From an uncultured bacterium (GTDB lineage Bacteria > Spirochaetota > Leptospiria > Turneriellales > Turneriellaceae): a stretch of DNA of 15,513 nt. The notes beneath the pieces are model-generated. The model saw only the letters and a program-made list of their open reading frames with translations. It ran no database searches and was not told the origin of the DNA. The first letter of the stretch is position 1, and every line of letters starts with the position of its first letter. The stretch is from NCBI GenBank assembly GCA_938038265.1, contig CALHRC010000079.1:1-15513 (forward strand), read 5' to 3'. Positions 343 to 15,513 of this stretch are shown one piece after another. The position numbers and the translations under genes are program-made.

Positions 343-371
343 TTGAACTGCTAAGAAAAGAATCGTATAAT
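343..371 (+). promoter_or_regulatory. Near-consensus sigma70-type promoter: TTGAAC (343-348), 17-bp spacer, TATAAT (366-371).
   Basis: Hexamers and spacing read directly. The predicted transcription start (~377-379) coincides with an ATG at 377. Confidence 0.55.
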
Positions 372-376
372 GTAAT

Positions 377-544
377 ATGGACATAGGAAAAATTGATCCC
401 TATACGGTGCCGGTAAACCAGCCGCAGACAACCCCACCACAGCCACAACCCACAACAGAAAACGAACCCAAAGCCGATGCCGGCAGCAGTGGCGTTACGC
501 CGCCGGTACCTGAGAATATCCCTAAAATAGATTTTTATGCTTAA
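377..544 (+). CDS. Possible leaderless small ORF, 55 aa, Pro/Thr/Gln-rich (MDIGKIDPYTVPVNQPQTTPPQPQPTTENEPKADAGSSGVTPPVPENIPKIDFYA). Alternatively the CA-rich 5' leader of the downstream gene.
   Basis: I translated this myself. It falls below the 60-aa cutoff of the supplied ORF track. The ATG sits 6 nt after the -10 hexamer. It is in the same frame as the 563 ORF and separated from it by a single TAA (542-544). No similarity recognised. Confidence 0.25.
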   Translation: MDIGKIDPYTVPVNQPQTTPPQPQPTTENEPKADAGSSGVTPPVPENIPKIDFYA

Positions 545-562
545 AAAGCCGATATTAATACC

Positions 563-1381
563 ATGGCTGTAGATCAGGCGACCAAAAAAAAATATAACGA
601 TCAAATTGCTGAACAAAAAAAAGAAATCAGCGAATTAGAAAAAGACATCTCTATTTATCGCAAACAAATGCAAGCCAACAAAAAATTAGAGCCATTTTAC
701 CGTTTAGCCATTATTGCCCGTTACCTCAAGCAGGCCAACCTCTATATTGACATGAGTAATCTTTCTGAATCAATGATGAATATTAAAAATAATTCTTATC
801 TTGACTCCGCTAGAAAACTAATTTATAAAATCATTGTTGAAGCCGAAGACATTTTTACTGCAGAAATTGATGAGCCGCTTGACCATAATCGCGAACAGTT
901 GAACGCCGTAAAGCCATTCAATCCGCGCCAGCGCCTGAACCTCTATAAACATATCAAAAAACTAATCCAACGCCTCATTAACGCTTACGGCCAGAATACG
1001 AAATGGCAGTGGTCCTTCCCCGAGTTGTGGAGCAAATCGTCGGTCTTGCTTAAAAATATGACTGATTTTCGTGAAGTGCAATCTATCCGCGACCCCAGAG
1101 AAATCTATTACTACGACCGGCAGGAAATGCTTGAGCTGTTAAAAGAAGACATGTTTAACGCGTCAAATCACTACCGGGACAAATTTGAGCTTTCGACAAA
1201 GTCACCTAATGATATTGTACATGCAATAAAATTGCTCGAAGGCCTGCGGCGGGTTGCTAGTCTTACTGGCGATGATGAATTAGTCAAACGCTGCAAGGCC
1301 GGCATTGAAGCTTATCGCTCACGCATAGAAACTGACGAAAAAAATGATCCCAAGAAAGCGAAAGCAGCCAAGAAAAAATAA
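563..1381 (+). CDS. Hypothetical protein, 272 aa. N-terminal coiled-coil-like K/E-rich region and a C-terminal histone-H1-like lysine/alanine tail (DPKKAKAAKKK).
   Basis: Long ORF with coherent codon usage and no family recognised. Weak or absent Shine-Dalgarno. A9 (584-592) and A8 (615-622) homopolymers lie within the first 20 codons. Confidence 0.6.
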   Translation: MAVDQATKKKYNDQIAEQKKEISELEKDISIYRKQMQANKKLEPFYRLAIIARYLKQANLYIDMSNLSESMMNIKNNSYLDSARKLIYKIIVEAEDIFTAEIDEPLDHNREQLNAVKPFNPRQRLNLYKHIKKLIQRLINAYGQNTKWQWSFPELWSKSSVLLKNMTDFREVQSIRDPREIYYYDRQEMLELLKEDMFNASNHYRDKFELSTKSPNDIVHAIKLLEGLRRVASLTGDDELVKRCKAGIEAYRSRIETDEKNDPKKAKAAKKK

Positions 1382-1459: not shown

Positions 1460-1702
1460 GTGCCGCAGCTTGTTCTCTACCATTTTGACTCCTGTCCGTA
1501 CTGTCTGAAAGTCAGACGGTACCTGGAGCAGAATAACATAACCATAACCATGAAAAACACCATGACCGATCTTGGCGCGCGGGCAGAATTGTTACGCATT
1601 GGCGGTAAAACCCAGGTTCCCTGCCTTGTGATTGACGGCAAAGCCCTCTATGAATCCGATGACATCATTCAATGGTTTCAGGAGAATTACCAGCATGTTT
1701 GA
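1460..1702 (+). CDS. Glutaredoxin (classical dithiol CPYC active site), 80 aa. GTG start inferred.
   Basis: CPYC motif, TQVP and G..D elements of the glutaredoxin/thioredoxin fold. Overlaps the next gene by 8 bp (ATGTTTGA). Confidence 0.7.
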   Translation: MPQLVLYHFDSCPYCLKVRRYLEQNNITITMKNTMTDLGARAELLRIGGKTQVPCLVIDGKALYESDDIIQWFQENYQHV

Positions 1703-1964
1703 AGCGTTATACCGGGCGATAGAAAAAGCCATAACCGACGCGCTGCCCGGTGCCGAGGTACATATCCATGATCCAATGAACGATGGAGCTCACCTGCAGG
1801 CCCTGGTAATTGCAGAACAGTTCCGGGGCATCCCGCTGGTAAAACAGCACAAAATGGTCATGAGCGCGGTCGCCAATCTGATGGAGGCCCGGGTACACTC
1901 TTTGGGTTTAAAAACTTTTACTCCCGAAAAATGGGAAGTTGAAAAAAAAGACTATATAATGTAA
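1695..1964 (+). CDS. BolA/IbaG (YrbA)-family protein, 89 aa.
   Basis: Family-like sequence (HLQALVIAEQFRGIPLVKQHKMV...LKTFTPEKW), compared with E. coli IbaG from memory. Start ATG 1695 is chosen over the track's 1632 because of a GGAG at 1681-1684 and the 8-bp overlap with the grx stop. BolA-Grx partnership is established biology. Confidence 0.75.
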   Translation: MFEALYRAIEKAITDALPGAEVHIHDPMNDGAHLQALVIAEQFRGIPLVKQHKMVMSAVANLMEARVHSLGLKTFTPEKWEVEKKDYIM

Positions 1965-1979
1965 TCACAGGAGTTTAAT

Positions 1980-2294
1980 GTGAGCCTTGAAAACGTAAAA
2001 CAGCAAATTGAGCAGGATGTAAAAAATAATAAAATTATACTCTACATGAAAGGTGACAAAGATATGCCGCGTTGCGGATTTTCCGCTCGGGTCGTCGATA
2101 TATTAAACCATTACGGCGTTGAGTTTGCTACCCGCGATGTACTGAAAAGCGAAGAGTTGCGTCAGGCAATTAAGGAATATTCCGATTGGCCCACCCTGCC
2201 CCAGCTTTATGTTAACGGGGAATTTATCGGCGGCTGCGACATTGTCACGGAACTGCACCAGAACGGGGAACTAAAGGCGCTGTTGGGCGCCTGA
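1980..2294 (+). CDS. grxD: Monothiol glutaredoxin Grx4/GrxD (CGFS type), 104 aa.
   Basis: CGFS active site and N-terminus collinear with E. coli GrxD (ILLYMKG...P.CGFS). GTG start at 1980 with AGGAG 6 nt upstream. Confidence 0.9.
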   Translation: MSLENVKQQIEQDVKNNKIILYMKGDKDMPRCGFSARVVDILNHYGVEFATRDVLKSEELRQAIKEYSDWPTLPQLYVNGEFIGGCDIVTELHQNGELKALLGA

Positions 2295-2296
2295 GT

Positions 2297-3535
2297 ATGT
2301 TTCTTGCCGATAAAATTTCCGATGTTGCTCTAAGCAGAGCTGAAGCCTGGCTTGAGCAGCAGGAACAAACCGTTACTCTGCCCTTGTACCTCTCAACGGA
2401 TATAAGAGATGCTGGTTTCAAGGCCATGCCGATTGATGCTAACTTGTTTCCGGCAGGTTTCAACAACCTGCATTTAGACGATCATCCTTTTGCTGCTCTC
2501 GTCATAAAAAACGCCCTGATGTCGCGCAAAGCGGATATCCGCCGGGTGCTGGTTATCATGGAAGAGCATTCCAGAAATCTTTGGTATCTGGAAAACATCG
2601 CTGTGTTACGTGACCTGATTCTTGCTGGCAAAATCGAGGTAGATGTCACGACCCCCACAGACCTATCCGATGTCACTTACACCGACGGGAAAGCGACCCT
2701 GCTGACTGCCCGAGGGAAAAGTCTTGAAGTAAGACAAATCACATATTGCCAAAACGACGCCTATGATCTGGGAATTTTAAACAACGATTTGATGAACGGC
2801 ATTCCCGACTCTTTGCGGAACCTGCCCTTTCCGATCTGTCCATCCCCCCGCCTTGGCTGGCACTCGCGCTTGAAGTCATCGCACTTTAGCTATTACAATC
2901 GTATAGCTGCAGATTTAGCTAACCTAATGGAAATTGACCCTTGGGAGATCACAGGAGCGGCAAGCAGAGTAGCCGATGTCGATATCAACCTTGATTCCGA
3001 TCGGGAGATTATAGCACAGAGTGCGGCAATACTGCTTGAACAGATTGAACAGAAATACCGGGAGCGCAACATTAACGCCAAACCTTTCGGCTTTCTTAAA
3101 GCTGACTATGGCACTTATGGCATGGGATTGATCCCTTTTGAGTCACCCGATGATATTCGTTTTATGAACCGCAAGACACGTAACCGACTTTTCAAGGGTA
3201 AAGGGTCACGGGAGATCCACGCCTACCTGCTACAGGAAGGAATTCCCAACACATTGAAATACAATGGCTATACTGCTGAAGTCTGCGTTTACCAGAGCGA
3301 CCGTCATCCGATTGGGCAATTTCTGCGCTACAATACGGAAAAATCAGAGCGCGAAAACTTGAACAGTACGGGAATGCACTTTTTGCCGTTCAGCGCCCGG
3401 CAGTCACCAATCTCTGCAAGACACCTGCGCTTCTATTACATTCTTACGAAAACCGCAATGCTGGCAGCTTCACATGAAGCACAGGCTGCGGCCATTACAG
3501 GGTGTGGCCGACATGAACTTTCTCTATCTTATTGA
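2297..3535 (+). CDS. gshA: Glutamate-cysteine ligase, short (~410 aa) proteobacterial family (the 'T. ferrooxidans-type' GshA, as I recall it), 412 aa.
   Basis: Not the 518-aa E. coli-type GshA. The call rests on size, on its position immediately upstream of and overlapping gshB, and on my recollection that this short GshA family typically sits adjacent to gshB. Needs an HMM search to confirm. Confidence 0.55.
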   Translation: MFLADKISDVALSRAEAWLEQQEQTVTLPLYLSTDIRDAGFKAMPIDANLFPAGFNNLHLDDHPFAALVIKNALMSRKADIRRVLVIMEEHSRNLWYLENIAVLRDLILAGKIEVDVTTPTDLSDVTYTDGKATLLTARGKSLEVRQITYCQNDAYDLGILNNDLMNGIPDSLRNLPFPICPSPRLGWHSRLKSSHFSYYNRIAADLANLMEIDPWEITGAASRVADVDINLDSDREIIAQSAAILLEQIEQKYRERNINAKPFGFLKADYGTYGMGLIPFESPDDIRFMNRKTRNRLFKGKGSREIHAYLLQEGIPNTLKYNGYTAEVCVYQSDRHPIGQFLRYNTEKSERENLNSTGMHFLPFSARQSPISARHLRFYYILTKTAMLAASHEAQAAAITGCGRHELSLSY

Positions 3536-4469
3536 TCCCTTAGAGACACTCCACCCCAAAAAAGACACCTCGCTGGCCCTAATGGCCGCCGCAACCGAAA
3601 AAGGTCACTCGGTTTATTGGCTGACCTGGCGGGAACTTTCTCTCGTTTCAGGCAACCTAATGTTTCATGCGCATGAAGTGAAAGTAAAAATCGCCGGCGA
3701 GTATGCACAGGCAGAATCAGGCGCTGCTCGTTTGCTACCAGCGCATGAGGTGGATGTATTTTTTATTAGAACTGATCCACCCTTTGACCTGAATTACCTC
3801 ACCCATATGTGGCTACTCGAATACCTGCCAAGCAAAACCGTTATTTTAAATGAGCCGGCAGGCTTGCGAACCGTAAACGAAAAAATTTTTGCCGCACGCT
3901 ATCGCTCTATAGTGCCCGATACGGTAATCACTGCCGATAAGAACCTATACCGAGAATTTCTCAACCGGCATGGCCACATTGTCGCCAAACCGGCCACTGG
4001 CTTTGGTGGCTCAGCAGTATTTTTAGTACGTCGGGGCGACAGCAACGCCATGGTTATCTTTGAGTCACTTACCCGCAATGGTGAATTTGTCATTTTACAG
4101 GAATATCTGCCTGCTGCTGCCCAAGGCGACAAACGCATTTTGCTGCTGGGCGGCGAAATTCTCGGCGCAGTACTTCGGCTGCATGCAGATGAAGATCACC
4201 GCAATAATTTTGCCGCTGGCGGCAGCGCCCAACCCACCGAAATCACGCCCCGAGACAAAGAAATTATATCCCTCATAAAAGACGATTTGCTGAAACTGGG
4301 GCTTCATTTTGTCGGCATCGACATTATTGGCAGTTCACTGGTAGAAATCAACGTTACCTCACCTACTTGCCTGCGTGAAATAAACACATTGACAGGCAAG
4401 CGTCATGAATTTAACGTTATTGACTATGTAGAAGAGTTATGCAAAAAACGCGCAGAAAAAAATAAATAA
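3513..4469 (+). CDS. gshB: Glutathione synthetase (prokaryotic ATP-grasp GshB), 318 aa.
   Basis: N-terminus MNFLYLIDPLETLHPKKDTSLALM aligns with E. coli GshB MIKLGIVMDPIANINIKKDSSFAML. Start taken at ATG 3513 rather than the track's 3474. Overlaps gshA by 23 bp. Confidence 0.85.
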   Translation: MNFLYLIDPLETLHPKKDTSLALMAAATEKGHSVYWLTWRELSLVSGNLMFHAHEVKVKIAGEYAQAESGAARLLPAHEVDVFFIRTDPPFDLNYLTHMWLLEYLPSKTVILNEPAGLRTVNEKIFAARYRSIVPDTVITADKNLYREFLNRHGHIVAKPATGFGGSAVFLVRRGDSNAMVIFESLTRNGEFVILQEYLPAAAQGDKRILLLGGEILGAVLRLHADEDHRNNFAAGGSAQPTEITPRDKEIISLIKDDLLKLGLHFVGIDIIGSSLVEINVTSPTCLREINTLTGKRHEFNVIDYVEELCKKRAEKNK

Positions 4470-4478
4470 GGAGTCAAG

Positions 4479-5138
4479 ATGGCGACAAAATACAAACTAA
4501 TCAGTTTCAAATTATGTCCTTTTGTGCAACGATCGGTCATTACCTTGAACATGAAACAAGTTCCCTATGAGATTGAGTACATTGACCTGAAAAACAAACC
4601 AGAATGGTTTCTAAAAATTTCGCCGTCGGGAAAAGTCCCTGTTTTGTTGGTAGGCAATGAGGTACTGTTTGAATCAGCAATCATCAATGAATATCTTGAC
4701 GAAGTAAATCCACCCTCACTGCACCCAAAAGACCCCTTGAGAAAAGCACGTAACCGCGCCTGGATTGAATTCTCCTCAGGATTATTTACTCTGTTTTTTC
4801 AACAAGCGCACGCTAAAACAGAAAATGAATTTAACGAGAGAACCAGCGCAATTCTTTCAGGGATGCAAAAACTTGAGGAGCAAATCGTGCTGCCTTTTTT
4901 TAACGGAACTGAATTTAACTTGATCGACGCGGCAATTGCCCCAATGCTGGGTCGGTTTCAATATATAAAAAAATATATCCCATTTGATTATTTTGAGGGC
5001 ACCCCCAAGATGAAACAATATGCAGAGCGCTTAGAGCAACTACCGGAAATACGCAGCAGCCTTTTACCCGAAGTTCCTGCAGAGTTTATCGATTACATGA
5101 AGCATACCGGGGGCTATATGGCCCAGTGGTTTCAATAA
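4479..5138 (+). CDS. Glutathione S-transferase family protein (thioredoxin-like N-domain with CPFVQR, Grx2/omega-like), 219 aa.
   Basis: GST N-terminal fold signatures (KLISFKLCPF..R, VP.L, ES..I.EYL). AGGAG Shine-Dalgarno 8 nt upstream. Confidence 0.8.
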   Translation: MATKYKLISFKLCPFVQRSVITLNMKQVPYEIEYIDLKNKPEWFLKISPSGKVPVLLVGNEVLFESAIINEYLDEVNPPSLHPKDPLRKARNRAWIEFSSGLFTLFFQQAHAKTENEFNERTSAILSGMQKLEEQIVLPFFNGTEFNLIDAAIAPMLGRFQYIKKYIPFDYFEGTPKMKQYAERLEQLPEIRSSLLPEVPAEFIDYMKHTGGYMAQWFQ

Positions 5139-15168: not shown

Positions 15169-15277
15169 ATCTTAATTACGCCGCTAATTTAATGCAATAC
15201 CATGCGTAAATATGTTTCCTATTTCCTATATACTTTATCCCATGCGAGGAGTTATGTACACTCCGCCCGCACCACGT

Positions 15278-15513
15278 AATTTTCGCTTATGTGAGGATGT
15301 TTTACCCCGAGCAAGTCCACCGCTGCCGTAATTTTTCTGCATGTGGGATGTTTTCCCGCCGCTGCCCAGTTTCTCGCATGGGCTGATGTTAGACTTGCAC
15401 TGCCTAATTTTTGCAAATGTGGGGATATTTTCTTGCCGAGCAGCTTGACCAGTTCACTGGTGCCGTATTTTTGAGGATATTTGAGGGGGTGCATCCGCCT
15501 GAAAGAGCGCGCG
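15278..15513. repeat. Degenerate tandem repeat array, at least 4 units starting at 15278, 15330, 15406 and 15467. Each begins AATTTTT(c)-N3-5-ATGTG(R)GGATRTTTTCC. Truncated by the window edge.
   Basis: Aligned by eye with periods of 52, 76 and 61 bp. Unit tails are related (CCGAGCA...CTGCCGT). Lies upstream of alaS in its promoter-distal region. Confidence 0.6.

Follow-up and report, generated by a model that had tools for sequence, protein, structure and literature searches.

The 15,513-nucleotide stretch of DNA analysed here (45% G+C; contig CALHRC010000079.1 of assembly GCA_938038265.1, from an uncultured bacterium of the Turneriellaceae), referred to below as the window, carries near its left end a gene, here called X, whose product belongs to a family that is specific to Spirochaetota, vertically inherited and described in no curated resource. 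Modelling presents X as an alpha-solenoid of the TPR-like class (TPR, tetratricopeptide repeat) without a recognisable family, and it constitutes a new family inside a familiar structural class. In the Leptospirales X is usually accompanied on its 5′ side by a conserved micro-protein gene. By analogy with solenoids that hold the free C-termini of their partners, X may be a protein-interaction adaptor which binds the C-terminus of the micro-protein in Leptospirales and in at least one other lineage, a tentative reading whose probability is put at about 0.35. X is a housekeeping-type gene, neither a contingency gene nor an effector. The two genes on which the argument turns are the following.

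377-544, plus strand: small open reading frame (ORF) of 55 aa, MDIGKIDPYTVPVNQ...PKIDFYA, a putative partner predicted to be disordered, with three short conserved motifs.
563-1381, plus strand: gene X, 272 aa, predicted cytoplasmic all-alpha helical-repeat protein of a Spirochaetota-restricted family without a curated name.

The translation of X begins with MAVDQATKKKYNDQ and ends with DEKNDPKKAKAAKKK. An earlier sequence-only reading of the window had placed this ORF, two poly-A tracts at its 5′ end (A9 and A8) and a lysine-rich tail, all of them correctly by re-translation. X is a genuine gene, as testified by 55 close homologues, 230 clusters of relatives, and a conserved length and N-terminus. 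The close homologues are 50-100% identical and 262-288 aa long, and all are unnamed. The clusters (defined at 50% identity) were obtained at E <= 1e-3 in a profile search of 1.84 billion representatives, 52 of them at E <= 1e-30; all members are ~262-290 aa long, and the sources are Leptospirales and Treponema. The distribution of homologues, proposed as a check in the earlier reading, is thus that of a family shared by these two groups. A scan of one genome per species, with the NTKWQWSFPE and YRxKYELST motifs described below as search patterns, found an X relative in 160 genomes. Among the best 80 of the 160, from which the taxonomy was read, Leptospirales (Turneriella, Leptospiraceae and “Leptospiria” metagenome-assembled genomes, MAGs) are 35-80% identical to X and Treponema/Treponemataceae 27-34%. 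The named sources in a second profile search were Spirochaetaceae, Treponema (cultured oral and other isolates) or Leptospiraceae, together with a few probably mis-binned MAGs. Treponema homologues derive from rumen, faecal and termite-associated MAGs and from an oral isolate. By these relationships the window stems from a Leptospiraceae-like organism, the nearest relative of which is a MAG in which X is 80% identical and the same glutathione operon lies downstream. Among the matches listed, none is labelled Leptospira sensu stricto, Borrelia or Brachyspira, and absence from these groups is not established.

The family had been called unrecognised from the sequence alone, and the searches agree, giving no remote-homology match to a curated family or, by sequence, to a solved structure. 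Pfam, NCBIfam, PADLOC and PHROGs returned nothing above threshold for X, for Treponema and mid-distance members or for 62 diverse members taken one by one, and sequence searches of the PDB with X and two profiles gave no significant match. Nothing naming the family was found in the literature on spirochaete signature proteins and Turneriella genomes. DUF6776 and DUF2129, which surfaced in the family-library searches, were discarded as sub-threshold coiled-coil noise. One distant cluster is labelled “TPR repeat protein” by the Joint Genome Institute, and the sole Pfam trace there is TPR_6 at E ~0.5. An apparent ScpA-X fusion on a 1.1-kb ENA contig (P0055), in which a 253-aa ORF joins the ScpA N-terminal domain to mid-X at ...AYGQNTKW..., was rejected as a probable assembly chimera.

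Structure prediction, which had also been proposed as a check, yielded a confident AlphaFold2 model from a 42-sequence alignment, entirely helical, with a mean predicted local distance difference test score (pLDDT) of 90.3 and a predicted TM-score (pTM) of 0.86. The helices span residues 5-38, 40-72, 77-98, 121-142, 153-166, 183-212, 215-235 and 238-261, and residues 265-272 are disordered in the model (pLDDT <50). When the model was compared with the PDB by Foldseek, only generic TPR-like or designed helical repeats were retrieved, with TM-scores mostly <0.5. The N-terminus had been taken for a coiled coil. The heptad-like hydrophobic pattern is indeed present (residues 15-36), but in the compact model helix 5-38 runs straight on into helix 40-72, both with pLDDT >95; the two are read as a probable intramolecular hairpin within the predicted solenoid rather than as a free coiled coil, and the heptad-like pattern fits such a hairpin.

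Alignment of 130 members with <60% identity to one another defines a family signature. It consists of L80, A83-R84-K85, E95, D103, G143, K147-W148-x-W150, K164-N165, D177-P178, Y183, Y204-R205-x-K207-Y-E209, D217, L228 and W/Y251. The residues of X conserved family-wide are mostly K, N, R, D, W and Y and lie on helices. Within Leptospirales, NTKWxWSFPE (hence K147, W148, W150, S151, F152 and P153) and RDPRE are invariant. The corresponding codons are these.

809-817, plus strand: A83-R84-K85, the “ARK” signature in helix 77-98; R84 is conserved in 93% of the 130 non-redundant members.
995-1024, plus strand: N145-E154 (NTKWQWSFPE), the most distinctive motif; K147, W148 and W150 are conserved at 78-86% family-wide.
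1052-1102, plus strand: K164-N165...R176-D-P-R-E180 (KN...DFRE.Q..RDPRE); N165 is conserved at 93% and D177/P178 at 77-80% family-wide.
1172-1213, plus strand: Y204-R-D-K-F-E-L-S-T-K...D217 (YRxKYELST); R205 is conserved at 84% and D217 at 93% family-wide.

The second component of the locus is the small ORF, whose full sequence is MDIGKIDPYTVPVNQPQTTPPQPQPTTENEPKADAGSSGVTPPVPENIPKIDFYA. An equivalent ORF of 45-67 aa lies on the same strand 2-109 nt 5′ of X in ~38 of 41 Leptospirales loci. It is found also in a distant locus (L093; loci are cited by number where they must be told apart), where it ends in ...AVGRNIDIEA and X is only 32% identical. None of the 41 Treponema loci scanned has it within ±4 kb of X. 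A Shine-Dalgarno sequence of GGAGG type precedes the small ORF in many lineages, and several MAG annotations call the ORF as a gene, encoding a hypothetical protein. X had been described as the only clearly coding but uncharacterised gene of the window, and this does not hold: the 55-aa ORF at 377-544 is likewise without a family, as is an 80-aa ORF at 15252-15494 on the minus strand, at the contig end, which has no Pfam or NCBIfam match.

Three motifs are conserved in the small ORF, namely M-[DE]-I-x-x-I at the N-terminus, D-T/A-G-x-x-G near the centre and [IV]-D-[TF]-Y-A at the C-terminus, the last with the variants NFTA, DFLA, DTYG and DFFA. The middle is rich in P, Q and E and not alignable, and the spacing between motifs varies. 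The C-terminus is kept even where X is only 35-39% identical. Its codons in the window are as follows.

527-541, plus strand: I-D-F-Y-A pentapeptide of the small ORF; synonymous codons vary across loci.

In the last five codons the loci use GCT, GCC, GCA and GCG for Ala, ACN for Thr, GAT and GAC for Asp, TAT and TAC for Tyr, and all three stops. Because all synonymous codons are used, selection on the tail acts at the protein level and not on the DNA. AlphaFold2 gives the small ORF no secondary structure (pLDDT 61, pTM 0.15), and its predicted profile is that of an intrinsically disordered protein with short linear motifs.

The arrangement of a helical solenoid beside a disordered protein with a conserved tail suggests how X could act. 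X would work as a protein-protein interaction adaptor, in which a groove formed by K75-N76, R84-K85, K147, K164-N165, R205 and K207 would hold the partner tail by its acidic residue and its free carboxylate, much as TPR domains do with EEVD or PTS1 tails. TPR domains clamp C-terminal carboxylates via Lys/Asn/Arg, as in the pairs Hop-EEVD and PEX5-PTS1. The adjacent solenoid is the obvious candidate receptor, and its conserved, presumably surface-exposed Lys/Asn/Arg residues are of the type found in these clamps. The short polybasic tail of X would add non-specific affinity for an anionic surface, either membrane or nucleic acid. In the window, expression of the pair appears to start from the sigma-70-like leaderless promoter candidate ahead of the small ORF; a separate sigma-28-like −10 element, 6-7 nt 5′ of the ATG, may serve X in addition.

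Several points weigh against the adaptor reading. “TPR-like” is for X a fold class only, because a TPR sequence signature is lacking and the TM-scores are mostly <0.5; no TPR model reaches threshold in X or in the 62 members, the best being TPR_6 with E 0.4-0.65 in two distant members. Since the Treponema loci have no small ORF, X must have a function independent of it. When the −3 residue of the partner (T versus F) was compared with the columns of X, the top covarying columns followed the clades, so that covariation between tail and X is confounded by phylogeny and uninformative. The gene neighbourhoods, listed below, give no consistent functional theme, DNA repair, envelope biogenesis and proteostasis being suggested by one clade each. 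The likeness to established carboxylate-clamp receptors (Hop/Sti1 TPR1-TPR2A with Hsp70/Hsp90 EEVD; PEX5 with PTS1) is likewise limited, as X is without the 34-residue TPR signature, has helices of 22-34 residues instead of ~14, and its binding is a proposal. The 14-3-3 and SNAP-like helical adaptors are eukaryotic families with no sequence relationship to X and low structural specificity of the match.

The signals that may drive expression of the pair are two.

343-371, plus strand: sigma-70-like promoter candidate TTGAAC-17-TATAAT, scoring 10/12 in a consensus scan and ending 5 nt before the small-ORF ATG, a leaderless geometry.
548-556, plus strand: cis motif GCCGATATT, consensus R-CCGA-W-A-W-T, 6-7 nt before the X ATG, matching the sigma-28 −10 octamer GCCGATAA.

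For the first of these, Turneriella-clade loci have a comparable TTGnCC-17-TAnAnT 5-6 nt before the small-ORF ATG, and in positions 1-1800 the count of sigma-70-like sites is not above that in shuffles. Leaderless mRNAs are common in Leptospira (PMC5243855). Within the second, the sigma-28-like −10 is GCCGATAT at 548-555. Of the 38 Leptospirales loci examined, 19 have the CCGA core at −13 to −15 relative to the start codon of X, 18 of these at −13/−14. The homologue of Turneriella parva (L011), 59% identical, has a small ORF before it but is without the CCGA motif. In ~370 kb of Leptospirales loci, 16 of the 18 matches to the motif-plus-ATG geometry are at X; the motif precedes 16/38 X genes versus 17/316 other genes, an enrichment not corrected for phylogeny. 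The distant loci L091 and L094 also carry CGATAA-type cores 5′ of X. The sigma-28 consensus is TAAAGTTT-n11-GCCGATAA (PMC2859248), and a −35 TAAA with a 12-20-nt spacer was found in no Leptospirales X locus, nor is there a conserved column in that region. Because this −35 is missing and the motif may hide a sigma-70 −10 (GAWAWT), sigma-28 dependence of X is a lead and not a result.

The same element was observed at other genes of the compared loci. In Treponema a gene for a LysM/M23 secreted protein, ~2 kb (two to three genes) downstream of X, carries GCCGATAA 7 nt before its ATG. A near-perfect TAAA-N15/16-GCCGATAA precedes it in L069 (5903-5939) and L073 (6061-6098), and xTAAx-N16-GCCGATAA in L056, L058, L059, L064, L074, L077 and L080-L082. 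This sequence pattern suggests that the Treponema LysM/M23 product is a leaderless, FliA-dependent peptidoglycan-binding protein. In L001, the locus of the closest relative, ptsH (HPr), on the minus strand and near the 3′ end of that strand, is preceded by TAAA-N16-GCCGAAAA-N7-ATG. As ptsH is non-flagellar and has the same leaderless geometry, the sigma-28-like motif is not safely flagellum-specific. In L027, from a Turneriella MAG, a SpoIID/LytB-like lipoprotein gene (2502-3629, minus strand; SpoIID by eye) is preceded by GGCCGATAA-N6-ATG and is one of two non-X genes with the strict motif geometry in Leptospirales loci. Between the stop of the small ORF and the CCGAAAAT motif, five loci (L015, L016, L022, L023 and L025) have a perfect 11-13-bp hairpin such as TTATTTTGCGCGC-caa-GCGCGCAAAATAA. 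This Turneriella-clade hairpin is not a classical terminator because it is without a U-tail.

The genes around X differ between clades, in the following orders.

Window clade: X-grx-bolA-grx-gshA-gshB.
Many Leptospirales (14 loci): lgt-small ORF-X.
Another Leptospirales clade (8 loci): small ORF-X-hrcA, then ORFs of ~253 and ~640 aa, probably grpE and dnaK.
Treponema: degT-nadK-recN-X-HD nucleotidase-(cNMP-binding protein)-LysM/M23.
Distant member L090: PilZ-X-ftsW/rodA-murI.
Other distant members: no pattern.

In Treponema, 38 of 40 loci have recN immediately 5′ of X and on the same strand. In L043 the beginning of X overlaps the recN stop codon; in L089, from the T. denticola group, 11 nt separate the two genes, and the end of X overlaps the beginning of the gene for a YfbR-like HD nucleotidase. 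L093 has a degT-nadK context like that of Treponema.

Two other explanations of the pair start from the small ORF and from the motif before X. Conservation in the small ORF is concentrated in the last five residues by the stop, in most loci 2-49 nt separate this stop from the beginning of X, and in the Turneriella clade a hairpin of 13 bp lies in between. These features would suit a regulatory leader (arrest) peptide, on whose tail ribosomes would stall at the stop codon and thereby regulate X at the level of translation or transcription. TnaC, SecM and MifM are likewise short upstream ORFs with conserved C-terminal residues by the stop. However, the small ORF has additional N-terminal and central (DTGxxG) motifs that are also conserved and variably spaced, as fits a disordered linear-motif protein. 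RNA structure at the small-ORF/X junction in the window is not significant versus shuffles (z = 0.05), the intergenic length varies over 2-109 nt, and X has its own conserved upstream motif, so that a leader peptide is unlikely. Of similarly low probability is membership of X in the flagellar (sigma-28/FliA) regulon, with X and the small protein as an export chaperone-substrate pair (as FlgN-FlgK/L) or a checkpoint pair (as FlgM-sigma-28). Flagellar export chaperones hold their disordered substrates by the C-terminus, and in these systems, as at the X locus, the gene of a small disordered protein may stand beside that of an all-helical cytoplasmic protein. The sigma-28-like −10 upstream of X also recalls the FlgM-sigma-28 setting: GCCGATAT/RCCGAWAWT, 6-7 nt before the X ATG in ~19 Leptospirales loci, is almost unique to X there, and the octamer, again 7 nt from the ATG and with a −35 of TAA(A) type, also precedes the LysM/M23 gene downstream of Treponema X. 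Its match to the published consensus, the CGATAA-type cores of L091 and L094 and the frequency of leaderless mRNAs in Leptospira point in the same direction. On the other side, no TAAA −35 stands at the right spacing before X, and an E. coli sigma-28 promoter is crippled by single −35 mutations (PMC2859248). The motif could equally contain a sigma-70 −10 (GAWAWT), its geometry is shared by ptsH (L001) and the SpoIID-like gene (L027), no flagellar genes adjoin X in the clustered Leptospirales and Treponema loci, and no flagellin locus is among those compared. No FlgM domain was detected in the small ORF by Pfam or NCBIfam, its AlphaFold2 model has no helices and its sequence is Pro-rich, while X is twice the size of FlgN, FliS and FliT and has no sequence match to them. 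The most elaborate version, in which X and the micro-protein would be a spirochaete-specific two-protein module not described before, whose solenoid, a receptor of a new kind, captures the tail, made from a leaderless sigma-28-type mRNA and serving as a checkpoint/export pair of the periplasmic-flagellum regulon, is slightly less probable still.

Two further explanations rest on the neighbouring genes and the basic tail. X could be a nucleic-acid- or nucleoid-associated protein that binds DNA via its tail and takes part in DNA repair with RecN, given its place directly downstream of recN in Treponema, the tight gene junctions of L043 and L089, the similar degT-nadK context of L093, and its net basic composition (51 K+R versus 41 D+E; tail net +4). 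The recN linkage, however, is limited to one clade and may be shared synteny, Leptospirales loci are without a nearby recN, and the tail is least basic precisely in the recN-linked Treponema proteins. With no DNA-binding domain detected in X and H1-like domains being far longer and repetitive, this role is improbable. X could instead sit at the periphery of the inner membrane as a scaffold for cell-envelope biogenesis, with the polybasic tail as its anchor. Its envelope neighbours are lgt directly upstream in 14 Leptospirales loci, ftsW/rodA and murI downstream in L090 and the LysM/M23 gene in Treponema. Yet these neighbours change from clade to clade and several are in separate transcription units, X has neither an amphipathic helix nor a domain for binding lipids, and conservation of the tail is poor; a scaffold of this kind appears even less probable than the nucleoid role.

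The tail itself deserves a closer description.

1334-1378, plus strand: C-terminal tail DEKNDPKKAKAAKKK, residues 258-272, net charge +4, predicted disordered.

It had been compared with histone H1. In the last 15 residues of 235 full-length members the median is 5 K+R versus 3 D+E, and 207 of the 235 are net positive; the length past the last helix ranges from 0 to ~25 residues across the family, and the Treponema tail is typically ...DQKSGxxx and weakly basic. Histone-H1-like proteins (Chlamydia Hc1, Pseudomonas AlgP, the mycobacterial HupB tail) share with X a Lys/Ala-rich C-terminal stretch, here PKKAKAAKKK. H1-like domains, however, comprise tens to hundreds of residues of KKAA/PAKK repeats, whereas the basic stretch of X is only ~10 residues long, varies in length and charge across the family and has no Pfam match. 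The comparison with H1 thus fails: the tail is short, variable and mildly polybasic, not an H1-like domain. It may confer a non-specific affinity for membranes or nucleic acids.

From its composition X had also been suspected, as pure speculation, of being an effector secreted by an intracellular bacterium; nothing beyond composition speaks for this or for such a role in a host-associated bacterium. X has no hydrophobic segment, the maximum Kyte-Doolittle mean over 19 residues being 0.75 and that of the N-terminus −1.35, and from this absence X is taken to be cytoplasmic; by the same hydropathy measure there is no signal peptide. Turneriella parva is a free-living spirochaete (PMC3746428). The orthologues occur in Turneriella and Leptospiraceae MAGs, a group that includes free-living spirochaetes, as well as in gut Treponema, and some of the MAG isolates that have homologues bear names (SulCav, SKYG) which suggest that they come from caves and springs. 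X is moreover vertically conserved and has housekeeping neighbours, and the effector suggestion is effectively refuted.

The poly-A tracts at the 5′ end of X had been proposed as slipped-strand sites that switch the gene on and off.

584-592, plus strand: A9 tract, codons 8-10, AAA AAA AAA = KKK; not kept as a tract in the closest orthologues.
615-622, plus strand: A8 tract, CAA AAA AAA = Q18 K19 K20; recurs only where AAA is chosen for the conserved QKK.

Both homopolymers, of 9 and 8 A, fall in the initial 60 nt of the coding sequence, and a slip of ±1 would truncate the protein early. In this respect X resembles the contingency loci of Haemophilus, Neisseria, Campylobacter and Helicobacter, which also have a homopolymer in the 5′ coding region. 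The tracts of X nevertheless arise from codon usage. AAA accounts for 232 of 295 Lys codons (79%) in the genes of the window, and A9 is for this reason the likeliest single spelling of KKK, with a probability of ~0.49 for three AAA in succession; X has eight KK dipeptides, the highest number among the window genes. Sense-strand A8/A9 tracts are found also in bolA, the polyprenyl synthase gene, the amidohydrolase gene (A9) and the arginyl-transferase gene. In the closest orthologues (79-80% identical) the A9 site reads AAA AAG CAG or AAG AAA AAG, the A8 is variably broken among orthologues, and Turneriella is without either tract. The tract lengths were compared across samples in assemblies, from few samples: the independent assembly ERR9287621 (L083) matches the window at 1173/1173 nt, and the 79%-identical orthologue has one and the same in-frame sequence in each of five separate assemblies. 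With tracts broken in relatives, an identical second assembly and equal tracts in housekeeping genes, slipped-strand switching is unsupported. Unlike typical contingency loci, X is a core-type gene conserved phylum-wide, its tract is not conserved as DNA and no length variants are seen among the assemblies. That X is a phase-variable contingency gene is therefore very improbable, and a false lead is removed, as the poly-A tracts of X are not the marker of such a gene.

The window outside gene X is ordinary housekeeping DNA. Its plus strand carries grx, bolA, grx4, gshA, gshB, GST, an ABC-2 transporter pair, an SPFH protein gene and a polyprenyl synthase gene, and its minus strand an adenylosuccinate-lyase-like gene, an amidohydrolase gene, an arginyl-transferase-family gene and alaS. 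Scans of the whole window for tRNA genes and Rfam families gave no match. Positions 1460-5138 form a compact one-strand glutathione/iron-sulfur cluster, grx-bolA-grx4-gshA-gshB-GST, which is kept in the two closest relatives. The listed gshB ORF (3474-4469) overlaps gshA (2297-3535) by 62 nt, compared with 23 nt in L001, and the true gshB start is for this reason probably further downstream. At the contig end, positions 1-340 hold a dense palindrome cluster, the “structured repeat element” of the sequence-only reading. It includes two exact copies of a 22-nt perfect palindrome, CTGTTCAGGAATTCCTGAACAG, at 28-49 and 273-293, a GTCCGACA...TGTCGGAC pair (172-231) and CCCCxGCAGGGG boxes. Its predicted RNA fold has z = −7.7 versus shuffles, there is no Rfam match, and the 22-nt palindrome was found in none of the 89 other loci. 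The element may be REP/MITE-like (repetitive extragenic palindrome or miniature inverted-repeat transposable element).

What is new at this locus is the conserved micro-protein adjoining X, which together with the sigma-28-like leaderless motif is the part most worth following up. The X family is well conserved and confidently folded in the model, yet it is without Pfam, NCBIfam or PDB coverage and is called “hypothetical” nearly everywhere. Defining the family and its micro-protein would close an annotation gap in spirochaetes, among them relatives of the pathogens behind leptospirosis, syphilis and periodontitis. If either the docking of the partner tail or the sigma-28 link were true, X would offer a tractable new piece of spirochaete cell biology.

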